Below are positions 6,173 through 45,922 of a stretch of 56,914 nt of DNA, one piece after another; within the stretch, counting starts at the first letter, position 1; each line of letters begins with the position of its first letter. Location of the stretch: the NCBI GenBank assembly GCA_964195005.1, contig CAXMOO010000089.1:1-56914 (forward strand). The letters are read 5' to 3'. The notes beneath the pieces are model-generated. The model ran no database searches. It was given only the letters and a program-made list of their open reading frames with translations, and was not told where the DNA came from. The stretch is from an uncultured Gammaproteobacteria bacterium (GTDB taxonomy: Bacteria > Actinomycetota > Acidimicrobiia > Spongiisociales > SHLN01). A program made the translations under genes and the position numbers.

Positions 6173-6565
6173 GTGACAAATCGCAACGTTCTCGCCGGCA
6201 CCCTCGAGCCCTGTGGCACCGATCCTCTCACCGGCTTCTACCGGGATGGTTCGTGCGAGACAGGACCTGAAGATCGGGGCAGTCATACGATCTGCGCGGT
6301 CGTGACGCAAGAGTTTCTCGACCATCAACATCGCATCGGCAACGACCTGTCCACGCCGATGCCCCAGTATCGCTTTCCCGGCCTCCGGCCCGGCGACCGA
6401 TGGTGTGTGACCGCTACCAACTGGCTACGAGCTCACCACGACGGAGTGGCGGCTCCAGTCGTGCTGGCGGCGACCCACGAAGGCGCTCTGGACGTCGTTT
6501 CGTTGGAGGCTCTCCAGGAGCACGCGGTAGATGTTCCTCGTGACCCCGGCTGTCTCGAGGTCTAG
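6173..6565 (+). CDS. DUF2237 family protein
   Basis: 130 aa with a GTG start. NVLAGTLEPCGTDPLTGFYRDGSCETGPEDRGSHTICAVVTQEFLDHQ...GDRWCVTATNWL is the characteristic DUF2237 pattern. Confidence 0.8.
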   Translation: MTNRNVLAGTLEPCGTDPLTGFYRDGSCETGPEDRGSHTICAVVTQEFLDHQHRIGNDLSTPMPQYRFPGLRPGDRWCVTATNWLRAHHDGVAAPVVLAATHEGALDVVSLEALQEHAVDVPRDPGCLEV

Positions 6566-6620
6566 ACGACACGGGGCGCTTCCGCGCTTAGGCTCACGGC
6601 CAATCACGAAAGGAAGCAAC

Positions 6621-7043
6621 ATGGCCCTCGATTCAACCGCAACCGCCCATTGGGAAGGCGACCTGATGTCCGGCGGCGGCACCACCACGCTCACATCCGG
6701 CGCAGGCGGCCCCTTCCCGGTCGACTGGAAGGCTCGCTCAGAAGAGCATGCCGGAAAGACCAGCCCCGAGGAACTGATCGCCGCCGCCCATGCAACCTGT
6801 TTCTCAATGGCGCTCTCCAATGGTCTGGGCCAGGCCGGCACCCCGCCCGATTACCTCGATGTGACGGCGACTGCCACCTTTGTGCCCGGCGAGGGAATCA
6901 CCGCAATGCGTCTTGTTCTATCCGGTGAGGTTCCCGGCCTGAGCGACGAGCAGTTCCGGGAAGCTGCCGCGGACGCCAAGGAGAACTGCCCGGTCTCGCA
7001 GGCTCTAGCCGGGAACGTCCCCATTACGCTCGAGATCAACTGA
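6621..7043 (+). CDS. osmC: OsmC family peroxiredoxin
   Basis: The ATG at 6621 is preceded by GAAAGGAAG. MALDSTATAHWEGDL...SPEELIAAAHATCFSMAL...AKENCPVSQAL carries the two OsmC Cys motifs. Confidence 0.85.
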   Translation: MALDSTATAHWEGDLMSGGGTTTLTSGAGGPFPVDWKARSEEHAGKTSPEELIAAAHATCFSMALSNGLGQAGTPPDYLDVTATATFVPGEGITAMRLVLSGEVPGLSDEQFREAAADAKENCPVSQALAGNVPITLEIN

Positions 7044-7150
7044 ACACCTGAGCCGGCCTTGTCGGATCGGATCTCGGATTGGCCGAGTGGATACCATGCG
7101 GATCGCCTGTCTGGGAGGTCTCACTGAGCCACAGCTCGAAACACGAGGAA

Positions 7151-7948
7151 ATGCTTGGGCAGTTCCGTGACTTCTACAGCGCTGCCGAATCTCCTGCAAT
7201 GCGAGAGCTAGAGCGGCGCGTCCTGGGTGGGGGCTATGGAGGCAACAGCTACACCACAGTGGATCAGGCGGCCGAGCTCGTTCAACTTCTCGAACTTCGT
7301 GATGACCTTGACCTGCTCGACGTCGGGTCGGGCGCCGGTTGGCCTGGACTGTTCCTCGGTCGCGAATCGGGTTGTCGGGTAACTCTGGCGGACATGACGA
7401 TTGAGGGGCCGGGTGTGGCACGCGTCCGGGCCGCCAGCGAAGGTATCAATGCCCGGTCGATCGTGGCTTCGGGTGGGTCGCTCCCGTTCAGAGACAGATG
7501 CTTCGATGCGGTAACCCACTCCGACGTTCTCTGTTGACTGTCAGAAAAGCTCTCCGTGCTGAGGGCGTGCAACCGGGTTCTCAAACCAGGCGGGAGGCTG
7601 GCCTTTTACGTGATTCACTTCCAGCCAGGTCTTTCCCTGCCGCGAAAAGCCTCACTGATCGAAGCACTTCCCGGTGTCGTCGACGCGCCTGCTCCATACC
7701 TAGAACTGATCGAACGGGCAGGTTTCAACAACGTTGCCGAGCGTGACGTAACGCCCGACTATCAAAGGACCGCGGCTATATGGCTGCGTGAGGCTGGAGA
7801 GCTGGAACCAGAGTTGCGGGCCGCGCTCGGCGACCAGGTCTACGAGGATAAGCAGGCCAATCGGCTGAGATCGATGGCGGCGATCGATGCCGGCGATCTC
7901 GGCCGGACGCTGTTTACCGCGACCGCGCCCTCTGCCGAACGCCCCTGA
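7151..7948 (+). CDS. class I SAM-dependent methyltransferase with in-frame TGA (7535-7537): candidate selenoprotein, alternatively a pseudogene
   Basis: ORFs 7079..7537 and 7556..7948 share one frame and are separated only by TGA (...FDAVTHSDVLC-TGA-LSEKLSVLRACNRVLKPGGRLAF...). Motif I (LLDVGSGAGWPG) lies before the TGA and the RVLKPGG motif lies after it. The likely start is ATG 7151, preceded by GAGGAA. Confidence 0.6.
7549..7566 (+). other. candidate bacterial SECIS-like hairpin
   Basis: GCUCUC-CGUGCU-GAGGGC forms a 6-bp stem (one G-U pair) with a 6-nt loop containing G. The stem starts 11 nt after the UGA, so the loop lies about 20-25 nt downstream of it. Confidence 0.35.
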
Positions 7949-8042
7949 TACCTGTGGAGCGGATGGTCGGAACCCTGACAATGTCCACCCGCCCAAGGCC
8001 GGGGGAAGGTTCCTCAATAGAGATACACAGGTGAGATACCAA

Positions 8043-8264
8043 ATGACGCTTTCAGCCCAAAACCCTGCCAATGCTCAGGCCATCGTGTGCTCGGGATGCG
8101 ATGGAGAGCTTGTTGCCACCCAGGTTGATACTCAGCTCTTCGTGCGCCTGCGGGGGGACGACTCAGGGTCCAGGTGGACCACGACCCAGCTAGAAGCGTG
8201 GACGTGCCTCGGCTGCGGCCGCACCGACCTGTATGCCGCCGAGCCCGGCCGGCTCGCCTCCTGA
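8043..8264 (+). CDS. small zinc-ribbon protein
   Basis: 73 aa from the ATG at 8043 (AGGTGAG lies upstream). Two CxxC pairs are present: IVCSGCDGE and WTCLGCGRTD. Confidence 0.5.
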   Translation: MTLSAQNPANAQAIVCSGCDGELVATQVDTQLFVRLRGDDSGSRWTTTQLEAWTCLGCGRTDLYAAEPGRLAS

Positions 8265-31928: not shown

Positions 31929-32195
31929 GTGACCGTCGCTCCTAGCCGGGCCTGGCAGTCCGACGCGCTTTGCCGTGGGAATCAGGCGCAACTGTTCTTC
32001 CCTCCCACCACCATTGAGCGCAAAGAAGAGCGCGAGCGGCGTGAGACGAAAGCCAAAGCCATCTGCGGAGTGTGTCCGGTGCGCCGTGATTGCTCCGACT
32101 ATGCCGTGGGAATTCGTGAGCCTTACGGTATCTGGGGGGGCTACACCGAGGTCGAACGGCGTCAGTTGCTTGCTCAGGGCGTTACCCGGATCTGA
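31929..32195 (+). CDS. whiB: WhiB family transcriptional regulator
   Basis: 88 aa. The GTG start is preceded by ACAGGAGGA. ALC...C.VC.VR..C is the 4-Cys Fe-S motif, followed by GIWGG and a basic tail. Confidence 0.9.
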   Translation: MTVAPSRAWQSDALCRGNQAQLFFPPTTIERKEERERRETKAKAICGVCPVRRDCSDYAVGIREPYGIWGGYTEVERRQLLAQGVTRI

Positions 32196-33972
32196 CCCTC
32201 CGCAAATCACCATCCCGCACGGTGTGACCCTCACTGTCGAGCCACTCCAGTAGGGGTATTGCATATTTGCGCGTGAGTTGGAAGTGATCCCGGAACTGCG
32301 CCACCGTGAACGTTTCCGGCAAATTCGCAAGGCCATCGACTATCTGGATGATCTGCTCCGGTAGATAGCTCAAGTCGGGGCTGATTCTGATCAGTAGTCC
32401 CTGTCTGGCAAGTGCATGCACGAGGTCGTTGTTCAGTTCCAACTCCCGGACCCGGGGGACGGCCAGGCCCGCTTTGGTAAGGGCCGCCCGCGCTGCATCC
32501 CAGCTTGCTTCTTCAGACGGTCCCATCTGTGAGGCGAAATCACTTGTAGCCACCTCTGCCCCTAGATCGGCCAACTCGCTGCTGCCGGAGATCAAGGCGT
32601 TGAGCAGGTCGAGGTTGATGCGCAATTGGCTGGCGAGGCTTGCCTTCGGCATGCCTGCCCGGAGTGGGTTGGCTCGTTGGAACGTCCGGACGCTGTCCAC
32701 CGCAGACTGCGAGAGTCGAGCCTCCTCCGTTTTTGCCACGGCCGAAGGCCCCACTTTGATCGAACCTGTTGGAGTCCCTCCCCGGGTATGGGCAGCAAGC
32801 ACCTTCAGCAGGTCACGCCTGCGCCAGGCCAGCAGCTTCTCCGCTTGCTCGTCGGGGCTAGCCGAGTAGATCCCCTCGAGGGCCTCGATCGCCTGGGCAT
32901 GGTGGCGGCGTGATGGGGCAGGGTCGAGCACCCGCCCGCCCGCGACGACCGCCCGTCGCCCCACTTCACGGAGTATGAATCGATCACCAACTGCAACAGG
33001 CACAGGTGAGGTGACGGTGAGCAGGGCGTGCCCGGATCCATCTAGCTCGTTCGTCCCGATAAGCCGAAGCCGTGCGGGCCACGATCCGCTGCCCAGGTGA
33101 AGGTGGTAGGCGCCTCTGTCCCGCAGAGGGTCGTCGAGTCTGCGTACGGTCCGTAGCGTCACGAGGAAACGGTCTGATGAGGCCCACTGGCCGGGAGCCC
33201 CCAGCATCATTCCCCGTCCGACCTCGCCCGTATCCACTCCGCTCAGGTTGACGGCAGTGCGGTTGCCGGGCTCGATTGTCTCCAGGGACCGCTCGTGGCT
33301 CTGCAGGCTTCGGATCCTGGCCGCCCGGCCCGTTGGATACAACTCGACTTGATCGCCTGTCGTGAGCGGGCCCTCCAGCAAGGTTCCGGTGACGATCGTC
33401 CCGGCGCCACTGATCGAGAATGCTCGATCGAGCCACATTCGGGGGCGCCCGATATTCACGACGTCCTCGTCGCCAATCGCCTGGTCGAGCGCAGCCACCA
33501 GCTTGTCAACGCCCTGGCCGGAGAGCGAGTCGACCGGGATGATCGGGGCGGTTTTTGCGATTGTTCCGGCTAGCTGTTCGGCCACTTCCGCCGCGGCCAA
33601 TTCCGCCGTGTCGGCGTCGGTGAGACCAATCCGGGTGAGGGCCACTACCACCCTGGACACCTCGAGAAGATCCAGCACCGACATGTGTTCCTCGGATTGA
33701 GGCATCCAGCCCTCGTCGGCAGCCACCACCAGCAGCGCGACGTTGATGGCGTCGACCCCTGCCAGCATGTTTTTGATGAAGCGTTCGTGGCCTGGAACGT
33801 CGATGAAACCCACCTCGGTCCCGGACGGCAGCTCGGTCCATGCGAAGCCGAGATCAATTGTCAGGCCCCGCTCCTTCTCCTCCTGCCAGCGATCAGGATC
33901 CCGGCCGGTCAAAGCCTTGACCAGCGTCGACTTCCCGTGATCGACGTGGCCGGCCGTACCTACGATCGGCAT
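32182..33972 (-). CDS. selB: selenocysteine-specific translation elongation factor SelB
   Basis: The ATG at 33972 gives [42 protein letters not shown]...DVPGHERF. Long C-terminal winged-helix region. Its start overlaps the selA 3' end by 13 nt. Confidence 0.9.
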
Positions 33973-35303
33973 GCGAGGCGCAAAGTGTCGGTCACCAGCG
34001 AATCGTCGGTCGGATCCACTGCCCGCAGGTCGAGTAGCAACGCCCCTTCGTGACGGCGGGAGACAATCGCTACCTGTGCGGTCAGCAGGCGCATCCACAC
34101 ACCGTTGACGTCGGAATGCTCCACGCGAATAACCGGGCTTGGTATCACCTGGTGTGGCACCGAGCCGGCCCCAACCACCGACTCGCCGGCCGTGACCCGG
34201 CCGGTGCCCGCTTTGGCAACTATCGCGGCGGCTCGCTCCTCCAACTCGGCGAAGGGCTTGGCCACCATCGCCCAGAAAGGAACTTCGCCGCCGCGGCCAT
34301 CCGCGTACAGCTCGAGCGTGCGGGTCAAGCCGGCCAGGGTGGAGCCGTCGCAGCGCAAGGCTCGTGCCACGGGATGCCGGGCCATCCGCTTCACTAGGTC
34401 GGCGGTGCCGGCGATGATTCCTGCCTGGGGGCCGCCGAGCAACTTGTCACCGGAGAAGAGGACCAGGTCGGCACCGCTACTCACGGTTTGCCGCACTGCA
34501 GGCTCGCCGGCGAGCCACGGCGGCGGGGGGCCCTCCAGCCAGGGGGCTTCTCCATCGAGCAAACCGCTGCCCACGTCGGCGACGAGAGGGAGGTTGTGGC
34601 GGTGGGCAAGTTCAGCCAGATCACCGTAGGAAACTTCCTCAGTAAACCCGACGACCTGATAGTTAGAGGGGTGCACTTTGAGTATCAGGGCCGTTTCTGC
34701 TCCGATCGCATCCTGGTAGTCGTCGAGTCGGGTGCGATTGGTCGTGCCGACCTCCATCAGCCAGGCGCCGGAAGCTGCCATCAGTTCGGGGAGGCGGAAT
34801 GAGCCTCCGATCTCGATCAACTCGCCGCGCGAGACCACCACCTGGAGCTCGTTGGCAAGAGCCGTTAGTGCTAGGAACAGCGCTCCGGAGTTGTTGTTGA
34901 CCACCAGGGCATCTTCGGCTCCGGTCATCTGGGCTACGAGGTGTCTGGCGTATGCCGACCGGTTGCCCCGCTTACCTCCCGCGAGGTCGAACTCCAGGTT
35001 GCTGTAGCCGGTGAGCGACTCTTGCGCCGCGGCCGCGGCCGCCGGATGGACCGGGGCGCGGCCCAGGTTGGTGTTGAGTAAGACACCGGTGGCGTTGATG
35101 AGACGGGTGGGACGCATCCGCCCCAACCGTGCCAGCTCGATACGAGCCAGGTCGGCGGGATCGGGAGACTCGCCGTCCTCGATGAGGCGGCGCGACTCTG
35201 TGATTGCCTGCCTGGCAACCTCTACTGTTACCGCTCTTGCCCAACCGACATCCGCCAGGCTCGAGGAAAGCTCGTCGACCGACGGCAGTTCGCGCAAATC
35301 CAT
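33960..35303 (-). CDS. selA: L-seryl-tRNA(Sec) selenium transferase SelA
   Basis: 447 aa. LPSVDEL..., INATGVLLNTNLGRAP, NNNSGALFL and the PLP-Lys motif FSGDKLLGGPQAGII are present. Confidence 0.92.
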   Translation of the reverse strand: MDLRELPSVDELSSSLADVGWARAVTVEVARQAITESRRLIEDGESPDPADLARIELARLGRMRPTRLINATGVLLNTNLGRAPVHPAAAAAAQESLTGYSNLEFDLAGGKRGNRSAYARHLVAQMTGAEDALVVNNNSGALFLALTALANELQVVVSRGELIEIGGSFRLPELMAASGAWLMEVGTTNRTRLDDYQDAIGAETALILKVHPSNYQVVGFTEEVSYGDLAELAHRHNLPLVADVGSGLLDGEAPWLEGPPPPWLAGEPAVRQTVSSGADLVLFSGDKLLGGPQAGIIAGTADLVKRMARHPVARALRCDGSTLAGLTRTLELYADGRGGEVPFWAMVAKPFAELEERAAAIVAKAGTGRVTAGESVVGAGSVPHQVIPSPVIRVEHSDVNGVWMRLLTAQVAIVSRRHEGALLLDLRAVDPTDDSLVTDTLRLACRS

Positions 35304-37236: not shown

Positions 37237-37998
37237 ATGGACGTCACCCGCATTGTCGCTCCCAACCCGGGACCCTTTACCGGCGCGGGGACAAATTCGT
37301 ACATCGTGACCTCGGGCTCGGAGGCTCTGATAGTCGACCCCGGCCCCCTGATTTCATCGCATTTGGACGCTTTGCGGGCGAGTCTCGTGGGACTAGACAC
37401 GGTGGGGATAGCCGTCACCCATCATCACCAGGATCACGCCCCGGCCGCCAACCCTCTGGCCGCCGAATTGGGTGTCGTCACCTACGGTTTTGGGGACTTC
37501 GGGGGCTTTCAAGCAATCTCGCCGATTGCCGATGGAGAAATAATTCACATAGGGAATGAGGCGGTCACGGTGATCAGTTCGCCAGGGCATACCCCGGATT
37601 CGCTGTGCTTTCTGGCCGAAGATGCCCTCTTTGCCGGAGACACCGTGATGTCGGGCTCCACGGTCGTGGTCGATGACATGACCGCGTATATGGCGACGCT
37701 CGAGCGCCTGGCCGCCCTGGCTGTTGAGGAGATCTACCCCGGCCATGGCGAGCCGATCCACGGCGGGCCTGCTGTCATCGCGGCCTACATTGCCCACCGG
37801 CAGGAAAGGGAGAGCCAAATCGTGGCGGCCCTCGCCGCCGAGGCCCACTCGCTCGACAGGATCATCGCCGTGGTCTACGGCGATATTGACCCGGCTTTGC
37901 GGCCTCTGGCTCGCCAGTCGGCGCTGGCCCACCTCCACAAGCTGGTCGAGGAAGGCCGGGCGGCACTAGACGGTGACGTTTGGAGATCGTTGCTATGA
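37237..37998 (+). CDS. MBL fold metallo-hydrolase
   Basis: 253 aa. The metal-binding motif is VTHHHQDHAP. The pattern is glyoxalase II/hydroxyacylglutathione hydrolase-like (...SPGHTPDS..., ...PGHG). Confidence 0.85.
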   Translation: MDVTRIVAPNPGPFTGAGTNSYIVTSGSEALIVDPGPLISSHLDALRASLVGLDTVGIAVTHHHQDHAPAANPLAAELGVVTYGFGDFGGFQAISPIADGEIIHIGNEAVTVISSPGHTPDSLCFLAEDALFAGDTVMSGSTVVVDDMTAYMATLERLAALAVEEIYPGHGEPIHGGPAVIAAYIAHRQERESQIVAALAAEAHSLDRIIAVVYGDIDPALRPLARQSALAHLHKLVEEGRAALDGDVWRSLL

Positions 37999-39158
37999 GA
38001 CGCTCTCTGGCCGTTGTCTTCGCAGTGAGTGTGCTTGGGCTCACCGTGGTCGCTCCGGCCGCGGCCAGTCTCGAAGACGACCTGCGCGAGGCCCGACTGG
38101 AGTTGCAGTCCGCCGTCACCGACCTGGAGGCGGCCACCTGGGATCACCGGATCGCGTCTGACACCGGGGGCCTGATGCAGTTCGAGCATGACGAACTGTT
38201 GGAGGATGCCGCCCTTCTCACTTTCGACTACGAGGCGAGTCGAGATACTGCCTTGGCCCGTTCCCTGGAGGTGTACCACGGGCCGGCCGGGACTACCTGG
38301 GCAGAGCGCTCAGTGGCTGGTGTCTATTTGGAGGCCGCCCTTGTCGCCGACCGTGAGACCCTTCTTGCCAAGGCCGGCAGCGTGCGGGTGATGGATGAGT
38401 ACCTCGAGCAGATGCAGGCGGAGATCGACGCGTACGAGGCGGCCGCGGTGGAGGCCGAGACCCGGATGACCGAGCTGGCCGAGGATTTGGAGAGGCTCGA
38501 GGTCGTTGTGGCCGAGATCTCCACGGCCTACGAGGCCGAAGCGGCGTACAACGCCACCACCACGACTACGACGACCACCACGACCACCACCGTTCCATCT
38601 ACGACCACCACCACTGTTCCATCTACCACGACCACGACGACCGTGGGAACCGGAACAACCACCACCACTGTGCCGGACACGGGGCCGACTACAACGACCA
38701 CGACGACCCCCACTACTACGACCACCACGACTCTGCCTCCGCCGGTGGTTCTCGATGGCATGACATGCCCGGTGGCAGGGCCGGTCCACTTCATCGACAG
38801 TTTCGGCGCTCCCCGGTCTGGAGGCCGCACCCATCAAGGAGTCGACATGATGGCGGATCGCGGCACACCACTTGTTGCCATCGAATCGGGAACGATCGGA
38901 CGTCTCAACAACGGCGGCCTGGGCGGCATCACCATCTGGTTCCATGGCGACGGAGGGGACCAGTACTACTACGCGCACCTGGATGATTGGTCGCCCGGTC
39001 TCGCTGCGGGCCAGCACGTCGACGTCGGCACTCTGGTCGGCTATGTCGGCAGCACCGGTAATGCCCCCGACGCCTACCCCCACAATCACTTCGAGATTCA
39101 TCCCGATGGGGGAGCGGCGATCAATCCCTACCCCACGGTCGCCGCCCTCTGCCTGTAG
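37995..39158 (+). CDS. secreted M23 family metallopeptidase with coiled-coil and poly-Thr linker
   Basis: The ATG at 37995 overlaps the upstream stop (ATGA). The signal peptide is MRRSLAVVFAVSVLGLTVVAPAAAS. The M23 motifs are HQGVDM...YAHL...GSTGNAPDAYPHNHFEI. Confidence 0.88.
   Translation: MRRSLAVVFAVSVLGLTVVAPAAASLEDDLREARLELQSAVTDLEAATWDHRIASDTGGLMQFEHDELLEDAALLTFDYEASRDTALARSLEVYHGPAGTTWAERSVAGVYLEAALVADRETLLAKAGSVRVMDEYLEQMQAEIDAYEAAAVEAETRMTELAEDLERLEVVVAEISTAYEAEAAYNATTTTTTTTTTTTVPSTTTTTVPSTTTTTTVGTGTTTTTVPDTGPTTTTTTTPTTTTTTTLPPPVVLDGMTCPVAGPVHFIDSFGAPRSGGRTHQGVDMMADRGTPLVAIESGTIGRLNNGGLGGITIWFHGDGGDQYYYAHLDDWSPGLAAGQHVDVGTLVGYVGSTGNAPDAYPHNHFEIHPDGGAAINPYPTVAALCL
38556..38732 (+). 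repeat. low-complexity Thr-codon tract (ACC/ACG/ACT) with internal repeats of accaccaccRttccatctac
   Basis: It encodes TTTTTTTTTTTTVPSTTTTTVPSTTTTTTVGTGTTTTTVPDTGPTTTTTTTPTTTTTTT. Confidence 0.85.
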
Positions 39159-44905: not shown

Positions 44906-45922
44906 CTACGGCGAAGCCGCCCCGCAAACGGTTTCTGTAATCAGGCGGGTTACCAGATAAGGGTCGCAGTTGGCGTTCGGTCGCCGATCCTCGAGATAGC
45001 CGCGGCGTTCTTTCTCCACCTGCCACGGTATGCGCACGGAGGCTCCGCGGTCGGACACTCCATAGTTGTACTCGGTCCAGGGGGCCGTCTCGTGGAGGCC
45101 GGTGAGTCGCCGCTCGATGCCGGCGCCGTAGTTTTCGATGTGATAGTCGTGGTTCTTGCCGAGGGCTTCGGCTGCTGCGATGACGGCATCGTAATCCTCG
45201 CGCATCTGCGCCGTCGAGAAGTTGGCGTGGGCACCCGCGCCGTTCCAATCGCCCTGGATTGGCTTGGGGTCGAGCGTTGCCGAGATCCCGAAGTCCTCAC
45301 CGATGCGGTACAGAAGCCAGCGGGCAAGCCACACCTGGTCGGCGCAGGTCACCGGATCCAACGGGCCGATCTGGAACTCCCACTGGCCCATCATCACTTC
45401 TGCGTTGGTTCCCGAAATGGCGAGGCCCGCCTCGATGCAAGCGGTGGTATGTGCCTCGACCAGGTCGCGGCCGAACACTTCGTCGTCCCCTATGCCACAG
45501 TAGTAGCCGCCCTGCGGGGCCGGGTAGCCGCCGGGGGGCCAACCGAGAGGCCTGCCGTCTTTATAGAGCGTGTACTCCTGCTCGATTCCGAACCACGGCT
45601 CGAGGTGGCTGTAATGCTCGGTGGCTTCGGCGCACGCTCGTCGAGTGTTGGTGGCGTGAGGGCTCATGTCGGTGAGGAGTACTTCACACATGACGAGGAC
45701 GTTATCTCCCCCCCGGATGGGATCCGGCACCGTCATAACCGGCTGCAGGACGCAATCCGATTCGGACCCGGGGGCCTGGTTGGTGCTGGAGCCGTCGAAG
45801 CCCCAAATGGGAATCTCGGCGCCGGTTGGAAGCACGTTGGTCTTCGACCGAAGGAACTTGGTTGGCTCAGACCCGTCGATCCATATGTATTCCGCCCTAT
45901 AGGTCACGCTGTTTCCTTTCAA
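44906..45922 (-). CDS. glnII: glutamine synthetase type II (GSII)
   Basis: 338 aa. YRAEYIWIDG...LRSKT...IWGFDGSSTNQAPGSESDCVL.PV... and ...NGAGAHANFST. The length and motifs are those of the eukaryote-like GSII. Confidence 0.88.
   Translation of the reverse strand: MKGNSVTYRAEYIWIDGSEPTKFLRSKTNVLPTGAEIPIWGFDGSSTNQAPGSESDCVLQPVMTVPDPIRGGDNVLVMCEVLLTDMSPHATNTRRACAEATEHYSHLEPWFGIEQEYTLYKDGRPLGWPPGGYPAPQGGYYCGIGDDEVFGRDLVEAHTTACIEAGLAISGTNAEVMMGQWEFQIGPLDPVTCADQVWLARWLLYRIGEDFGISATLDPKPIQGDWNGAGAHANFSTAQMREDYDAVIAAAEALGKNHDYHIENYGAGIERRLTGLHETAPWTEYNYGVSDRGASVRIPWQVEKERRGYLEDRRPNANCDPYLVTRLITETVCGAASP

Follow-up and report, generated by a model that had tools for sequence, protein, structure and literature searches.

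The stretch of DNA analyzed here, contig CAXMOO010000089.1 at its full length of 56,914 nucleotides (nt) and referred to below as the window, carries at positions 7151-7948 a gene that very probably encodes a single class I S-adenosylmethionine (SAM)-dependent methyltransferase in which an in-frame UGA (7535-7537) is translated as selenocysteine (Sec, U). Recoding of this codon, which would give a Cys-Sec dyad just after strand β4 of the methyltransferase fold, had been proposed in an initial annotation made from the letters of the window; it is supported by an aligned column that holds either Cys or TGA in homologous genes, by an RNA hairpin characteristic of the Sec forms, and by an intact downstream half of the gene. 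Coordinates of the gene, its motifs, the hairpin, and the genes of the Sec machinery are given in Table 1.

One methyltransferase gene with a single in-frame TGA

Two open reading frames (ORFs), 7079-7537 and 7556-7948, lie in one and the same reading frame according to the ORF list, and the sole break between them is the TGA at 7535-7537. Translation of 7079-7948 gives ...FDAVTHSDVLC-[TGA]-LSEKLSVLRACNRVLKPGG... as the context of the break, and the residues translated 3' of the TGA in this frame read LSEKLSVLRACNRVLKPGGRLAF (region 6900-8100 inspected). SAM-binding motif I is encoded 5' of the TGA and the RVLKPGG motif 3' of it, and the match to the Pfam domain Methyltransf_11 spans aa 56-152, running across the TGA with 7.5e-16 and 59 bits (gathering threshold, 21.2). 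Because this match crosses the stop, neither half is a complete methyltransferase domain. The initial annotation had described two in-frame ORFs parted by one TGA, as well as two incomplete halves with motif I before and RVLKPGG after the stop; the translation and the ORF list bear out the first description, and the position of the Methyltransf_11 match bears out the second. The start that it had assumed, the ATG at 7151, is also the likely one in comparison with homologs.

Cysteine in the column aligned with the TGA

A search of a collection of 5.8 billion proteins returned 347 homologs, the best 120 of which, all full length (approximately 270 aa), were used for the alignment; full-length homologs cover 97% of the 265-aa product. 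Among these best 120, the column aligned with the TGA is occupied by Cys in 119 and by Ser (codon TCA) in one, the column just before it is likewise Cys in 119, and the motif H-[S/T]-D-V-L-C-C-L-x-x-K around the dyad is essentially invariant. Further invariant residues of the alignment are C75, D81, F118, K133, and R252. When 120 Cys forms and 73 Sec forms are considered together, the H, D, V, C, C/U, and K of the signature are invariant or nearly so.

Recurrence of the TGA across bacterial phyla

One genome per GTDB species was scanned with a degenerate DNA pattern for F-D-x3-H-[S/T]-D-V-[L/M]-C-TGA-[L/M]-x2-K, which yielded 83 loci in different species-level genomes; the estimated chance expectation was approximately 0.02 matches, so that the presence of the TGA in the same motif is far beyond chance. 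Most of the loci belong to Actinomycetota (Acidimicrobiia, Ilumatobacteraceae, Mycobacteriales, and Streptosporangiales), and the remaining ones to Dehalococcoidia and other Chloroflexota, to Gemmatimonadota (including Longimicrobiales), to one member of Dormibacterota, and to two Proteobacteria; the cultured actinomycete Pseudonocardia adelaidensis JCM 18302 (locus L057, on NZ_BAABJO010000035.1) is among the carriers, as are the complete genomes OZ252109.1 and OY970120.1 and the 3.3-Mb contig CAWDIH010000001.1. The aligned column thus alternates between Cys (119 of 120 homologs) and TGA (83 other genomes), as the initial annotation had expected of a Sec site.

Nearly all TGA loci show approximately 130-170 open codons 5' of the TGA and approximately 131 codons 3' of it, which is the architecture seen in the window. 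Homology to the window protein is seen at all 83 loci, and at approximately 70 of them the alignment covers its residues 4-260, across the TGA, at 37-51% identity. Residues encoded 3' of the TGA, namely K133, I155, D199, G248, and R252, show conservation of 90% or more in 73 Sec forms, as they do in 217 Cys forms, which argues that the downstream half is translated and under purifying selection. This downstream conservation across the TGA loci therefore speaks decisively against both a pseudogene and a local sequencing error.

In a decaying pseudogene, the TGA would have arisen by nonsense mutation from a Cys codon (TGC or TGT), and no full-length protein would be produced. The TGA is indeed one substitution away from the Cys codons of 119 of the 120 homologs, and gene callers treat such genes as truncated: a 146-aa homolog (P0145, source name 'SAM-dependent methyltransferase') stops exactly at ...HTDVLC, which indicates that Sec forms are cut at the UGA. 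Nevertheless, we regard decay as very improbable, since the identical TGA is found in 83 species-level genomes of several phyla, with a single stop, an intact frame, and 37-51% full-length similarity, conservation of the downstream invariants equals that in the Cys forms, and a hairpin specific to the TGA forms (described below) is conserved at synonymous sites, features that independent pseudogenes would not share. Additional stops or other signs of decay 3' of the TGA, which the initial annotation had named as marks of a pseudogene, were not found in the TGA orthologs.

A hairpin specific to the TGA forms

The hairpin noted downstream of the UGA in the initial annotation was found at the position and with the sequence given there (GCUCUC-CGUGCU-GAGGGC); its predicted energy is -8.3 kcal/mol, and its motif occurs once in the 56,914-nt window. 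In the Sec forms the hairpin is near-invariant (GCUCUC-CGUGCU-GAGAGC, 11 nt past the UGA, with the loop CGUGUU in some), and nt 12-31, counted from the U of the UGA, are AAGCUCUCCGUGCUGAGAGC in essentially all of them. The published model of the bacterial selenocysteine insertion sequence (bSECIS) specifies a loop of 3-9 nt, an upper stem of 4-16 bp, and an energy of -7.5 kcal/mol or lower, together with a G among the first two nucleotides of the loop that has G or U after it, and a spacing of 16-37 nt between the UGA and the loop (PMC13188914). The window hairpin fits this model in every respect, with its 6-nt loop starting C-G-U, its 6-bp stem, a spacing of 17 nt, and the energy given above.

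As a control, metagenomes were searched with a version of the pattern that has TGY in place of TGA; 120 Cys-form loci were collected in this way, and the Sec and Cys forms were compared in register. All six stem pairs are present in 70 of 78 unique Sec-form sequences (the other eight have five), compared with 3 of 108 Cys forms, in which three pairs are the mode. Information at third codon positions inside the hairpin amounts to 1.45-2.0 bits in Sec forms versus 0.2-1.0 bits in Cys forms, the mean local folding energy is -8.6 versus -3.1 kcal/mol, and the peptide encoded by the hairpin, KLSVLRA, is almost fixed in the former and variable in the latter. Within the Sec forms, stem positions pair in 98.1% of cells in register versus 32-69% with slid partners. 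Pair 19-28 is changed from U-A to G-C in four Acidimicrobiia loci, where a Ser-to-Ala replacement (UCC to GCC) is matched by a synonymous change of AGA to CGA, and U-G wobbles are found in nine Sec-form sequences, that of the window included. The hairpin thus appears to reflect an RNA-level constraint specific to the UGA forms, not a by-product of coding.

An extended lower stem (columns 7-10 with 38-41) was considered and rejected: these columns are 45% paired, no better than shuffled sequences, and a lower stem in a fixed register is not supported. An Rfam scan of the window detected tRNA-Pro alone, bacterial SECIS elements not being usefully represented in Rfam.

The Sec-form hairpin also bears on the quality of the contig. 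The window comes from metagenome assemblies, and a mistake in sequencing or assembly could have turned TGC, TGT, or TGG into the TGA; the nearest homolog differs by one base at this codon (TCA), so single-base differences, real or erroneous, do occur here. Such an error is hardly credible, however, as the window carries two features that the Cys forms almost entirely lack, the hairpin and the KLSVLRA codons, and as 83 independent assemblies, long-read chromosomes and the genome of a cultured strain among them, contain the same TGA.

Sec machinery and genetic code of the window

The window also encodes the Sec-specific proteins SelA and SelB, which the initial annotation had placed at 32.2-35.3 kb; both score above the curated cutoffs of their families (Table 1), and on identical metagenome contigs the selB gene call comprises 596 aa and includes SelB winged-helix domains. 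The two genes overlap by 13 nt and are followed by an opposite-strand gene of the WhiB family at approximately 32,000 (as called on identical metagenome contigs). They occur without adjacent selC or selD, unlike the compact sel clusters of many bacteria. Within the flanks examined, no Sec machinery was found near the other 200 loci.

In the mechanism that we propose, the mRNA hairpin would act as a bacterial SECIS element, to which SelB would bind, delivering to the ribosome Sec-tRNA(Sec) made by SelA, and the product would carry a vicinal Cys128-Sec129 dyad in the turn after β4.

Table 1. Positions in the window of the methyltransferase gene, its features, and the genes of the Sec machinery
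Feature	Position	Strand	Description
Putative methyltransferase selenoprotein, coding sequence	7151-7948	+	265 aa, Met1-Pro265; terminal stop TGA 7946-7948; one internal UGA
SAM-binding motif I	7313-7348	+	LLDVGSGAGWPG, aa 55-66; G59, G61, G63, and P65 invariant and W64 nearly so in the homolog alignment
Family signature	7517-7549	+	H123-S-D125-V-L-C128-U129-L-S-E-K133; turn directly after strand β4
Internal UGA codon (predicted Sec129)	7535-7537	+	directly 3' of the Cys128 codon TGT (7532-7534)
Candidate bacterial SECIS hairpin	7549-7566	+	6-bp stem 7549-7554/7561-7566; 6-nt loop CGUGCU 7555-7560; 11 nt after the UGA
selB, Sec-specific elongation factor	32182-33972	-	TIGR00475, 333.5 bits vs cutoff 242.25, full length
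selA, L-seryl-tRNA(Sec) selenium transferase	33960-35303	-	TIGR00474, 448 bits vs cutoff 267.9, full length

An alternative genetic code, in which TGA would be a sense codon for Trp or Gly (codes 4 and 25), has a negligible probability. Nothing more than the in-frame TGA itself speaks for it, whereas TGA is an ordinary stop in 10 of the 19 confidently identified genes of the window, including the methyltransferase gene and the neighboring OsmC gene, which indicates that the code is standard; moreover, the homologs have Cys at the column, not Trp or Gly.

Termination at the UGA and points against recoding

The UGA might also mainly terminate translation or be read through without selenium, producing an N-terminal fragment (perhaps together with a C-terminal piece started at GTG 7556) or a protein with near-cognate Cys or Trp, the hairpin then serving only as a general signal for pausing or read-through. 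Sec insertion in bacteria tends to be inefficient, and some terminated product is therefore expected; GTG 7556 opens the downstream ORF, and the lack of selC and selD among the features found in the window likewise fits such an outcome. However, neither half is a complete methyltransferase fold, and GTG 7556 lies inside the conserved hairpin, where it is the conserved Val codon of KLSVLRA. In addition, the hairpin fits the model of a SelB-dependent SECIS precisely, with the loop G-U located 18-19 nt past the UGA, selA and selB are present, and the exchange is strictly with Cys, which is the signature of Sec. We consider it very unlikely that termination or selenium-independent read-through is the main fate of this codon.

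Several observations nevertheless weigh against Sec insertion at this UGA and against the functional proposals made below. Insertion at this codon is predicted from sequence comparison. In the 57-kb window, tRNA-Sec (selC) was not found with ARAGORN and Rfam, and selD was not found with Pfam among the suitably sized ORFs. Since the element hardly varies, stem covariation is confined to a single pair, the change of which probably arose once, within one clade, and the support for the hairpin comes mainly from the contrast between Sec and Cys forms; the generic fold of 7535-7600 is no better than that of shuffled sequences (z = -0.01), a comparison that is uninformative in GC-rich sequence. Those checks suggested in the initial annotation that were run all came out in favor of recoding. 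Gene context is not conserved across the loci. Finally, the functional proposals are based on an alignment to phosphoethanolamine methyltransferases (PMTs) at approximately 20-25% identity and on the modeled structure of a homolog 52% identical to the window protein.

Exchange between Sec and Cys forms

A rough neighbor-joining tree, for which the columns of the dyad and of the hairpin were masked, shows Sec and Cys forms intermingled, with no fewer than approximately 10 changes of state, and the closest relatives of the window protein on it are Cys forms. The closest homolog, P0001 (L204:122-931; 60% identity), has TCA (Ser) at the TGA site and keeps a perfect hairpin, GCUCUCCGUGCUGAGAGC; the TCA reflects either a switch from Sec to Ser in the very recent past or an erroneous base in a low-coverage contig of 1.3 kb. 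Another homolog, P0121, is a Cys form 84% identical to the Pseudonocardia Sec form (L057) and still encodes KLSVLRA, and this retention of the SECIS peptide suggests a recent Sec/Cys switch. Both cases point to recent interconversion of the two forms. The near-identity of the SECIS across phyla favors a scenario in which the Sec form arose once and Sec was then repeatedly lost to Cys.

Fold of the family and position of the dyad

The window protein shows the hallmarks of a class I SAM methyltransferase, namely a motif I of the GxGxG type (G59, G61, and G63), the invariant D81 as the acidic residue ending β2, a Methyltransf_11 match above threshold, and the fold predicted for a homolog. As the structure, we used an AlphaFold (AF2) model of the Cys form P0002, which is 52% identical to the window protein (predicted local distance difference test score, pLDDT, 93.9; predicted template modeling score, pTM, 0.91), and in this model the C-C dyad is located in a short helical turn right after β4. 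Top Foldseek matches of the model were phosphoethanolamine methyltransferases (template modeling score, TM, 0.74-0.81), TleD, AtmM, and RebM, and among solved structures the family profile is nearest to RebM (3.7e-28), Arabidopsis PMT2 (2.2e-27), and MitM.

In the profile alignment, H-S-D-V-L-C-[C/U]-L-x-x-K corresponds to S-R-D-T-I-L-H-I-Q-D-K of the PMTs, in which the residue after the Asp is A or T; this places the Sec column at the PMT catalytic His and D125 at the conserved PMT Asp. By our own residue count of PfPMT, these equivalents are H132 and D128, respectively, and the titles of the PDB entries for the PfPMT H132A and D128A mutants are consistent with H132 and D128 as mechanistic residues. 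The equivalent His of PvPMT lies 4.8 Å from the SAM methyl group (PMC4357015). By inference from the alignment of the Sec column with this His, Sec129 would be an active-site residue next to the methyl donor. Since the PMT catalytic His is replaced by Cys/Sec, PMT-type N-methyltransferase activity seems unlikely for the family.

None of the NCBIfam models reaches its cutoff for this protein, and assignments to known families were considered and rejected. The best NCBIfam match, the DVU_1556 family (NF045667; 9.2e-16 over aa 41-223), gives 57.9 bits against a cutoff of 155. Phosphoethanolamine N-methyltransferases have a catalytic Tyr/His dyad (Y19 and H132 in PfPMT) that is not kept, the His column being Cys/Sec. 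The selenoprotein methyltransferases MduS, UXPK-star, ArsM/AhpD UU, and ArsM/DUF2284 UU score 26-39 bits against cutoffs of 380-575, and the motif is a vicinal C-U, not UxxG or CxxU. ArsM/AS3MT enzymes have conserved As(III)-binding cysteines, one of them the SNCV Cys after β4; for this family, the PRK11873 score is 36 bits against a cutoff of 263, the profile match reaches only approximately 1e-8 to 1e-9, and no such protein is among the top 50 Foldseek matches. The initial annotation had likened the dyad segment to that of ArsM, with the ArsM Cys a few residues upstream. This held for the register, as the Cys of the ArsM SNCV segment falls four residues upstream, at D125, in our own comparison with the AS3MT segment; it did not hold for the family, given the PRK11873 score and the neighbors of the protein (PMT, RebM, and TleD).

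Gene context and possible function

Our best guess is that the dyad binds or activates a soft methyl acceptor (chalcogen, metalloid, or thiol-type) or engages in redox cycling as a selenenylsulfide. The enzyme may be a methyltransferase of metalloids or chalcogens, the hints from gene context being weak. It is also conceivable, but rather doubtful, that the dyad is the working center of a previously unrecognized class of chalcogen/metalloid methyltransferases unrelated to ArsM, either holding a soft atom (Se, Te, As, Hg, or persulfide S) or using the selenolate to take up the methyl group as a covalent Se-methyl relay. If the Cys-Sec dyad is such a center, selenium would have been selected for its nucleophilicity and not for redox catalysis.

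Neighboring genes were counted in an analysis cleaned of antisense shadow ORFs and of fragments of the gene itself, which had dominated the first clustering. In a minority of loci, mostly Sec forms, an ArsM-like second class I methyltransferase is encoded nearby (21 loci), and a regulator combining ArsR-HTH and rhodanese is found near 14 loci, again mostly Sec forms; other minority neighbors are an MFS transporter, a DsrE-like protein, and a Glyoxalase_6 protein. The regulator and the ArsM-like methyltransferase, MFS, and DsrE-like neighbors may represent a sulfur or metalloid stress module. Three Cys-form gene contexts that were compared are unrelated to one another.

The ArsM-like neighbor has an ISNGVINLC segment and lacks the ArsM cysteines. 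Examples of Sec-form loci with neighbors of the possible stress module are L028 (about -2974 to -2155 from the TGA), L067 (+449 to +1121), L026 (-1724 to -413), and L015. In the window, an OsmC-family peroxiredoxin gene (6531-7043, + strand; TIGR03562, 154 bits) lies directly 5' of the methyltransferase gene and is preceded by a small ORF (6173-6565, + strand) with no NCBIfam match; adjacency to OsmC did not recur at the other loci.

Other features of the window

The ORF at 37980-39158 (+ strand) encodes long poly-threonine tracts (TTTTTTTTTTT...VPSTTTT), followed by a C-terminal region that resembles an M23 peptidase by eye. A glutamine synthetase gene at 44906-45922 (- strand), with Gln-synt_N and partial Gln-synt_C matches, was considered as a truncated gene, but this was rejected; the gene ends in a stop codon of its own and encodes a short but complete type II-like enzyme of approximately 338 aa, and is therefore not a sign of poor assembly.

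Novelty and significance

A review table of prokaryotic selenoproteins contains ArsM (UxxG), MduS (CxxU), methyltransferase/UXPK-star, and the ArsM/AhpD and ArsM/DUF2284 fusions (PMC13188914); the 2022 and 2026 review tables also include methylated-DNA-protein-cysteine methyltransferase. A class I methyltransferase with a vicinal C-U is absent from the 2022 and 2026 tables and likewise from the GOS, Sargasso Sea, Olavius selenoproteome, and deep-Sep papers and the Actinomarina preprint, all of which are open-access literature, so that an earlier description elsewhere is possible. The mechanism is that of the ordinary bacterial Sec system, and it is the family itself that has no entry in the selenoprotein catalogs checked.

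If the UGA is read as proposed, the family would add to the known selenoproteins a widespread member, present in at least 83 species-level genomes of Actinomycetota, Chloroflexota, Gemmatimonadota, Dormibacterota, and a few Proteobacteria, the genes of which standard pipelines cut at the UGA or flag as broken. It would place selenium in the active site of a non-redox enzyme class, where the Cys-Sec dyad would be of a rare, internal kind. The existence of Sec and Cys forms that are close relatives but differ in the hairpin provides a very clean natural experiment on SECIS constraint. The near-invariant 20-nt SECIS could be used as a key in sequence searches and, in high-GC bacteria, as a compact cassette for recoding. 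With Pseudonocardia adelaidensis JCM 18302, a carrier is in culture in which the prediction can be tested directly.

Comparison with known systems

The gene resembles known bacterial selenoprotein genes, such as E. coli fdhF, in its in-frame UGA aligned with a conserved Cys, with repeated Sec/Cys interchange, in a stem-loop directly 3' of the UGA with a small apical G-U loop, and in being accompanied by selA and selB. It differs from classical selenoproteins in that the carrier is a SAM methyltransferase and not a redox enzyme, and its SECIS differs from classical ones in being unusually invariant in sequence across phyla, with only a short upper hairpin of 6 bp conserved.

Among methyltransferases, the PMTs and enzymes of the RebM/AtmM/TleD/MitM type are the best matches of the family, both by profile (E approximately 1e-27) and by structure (TM 0.7-0.8). 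The family shares with the PMTs the segment F-D-x-x-x-x-x-D-x-x-x-[His/Sec]-x-x-x-K after β4; in contrast to them, it has Cys/Sec in place of H132, preceded by an invariant Cys, and an invariant H123 at the end of β4. The known methyltransferase selenoproteins (ArsM with UxxG, the ArsM/AhpD and ArsM/DUF2284 fusions, MduS with CxxU, and methyltransferase/UXPK-star) have the same class I domain, in which Sec lies close to the side of the substrate, and a link to soft-element chemistry may be common to all of them, whereas the protein described here consists of a single domain with a single predicted Sec, in a vicinal C-U after β4.

In mammalian thioredoxin reductase, a vicinal Cys-Sec redox center is found in the C-terminal GCUG, on a flexible tail of the flavoenzyme. 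Like that center, the dyad described here would consist of adjacent Cys and Sec residues able to form a selenenylsulfide, and in both cases Cys-Cys versions exist in other lineages; unlike it, the dyad is internal and located in the active-site turn of a methyltransferase.

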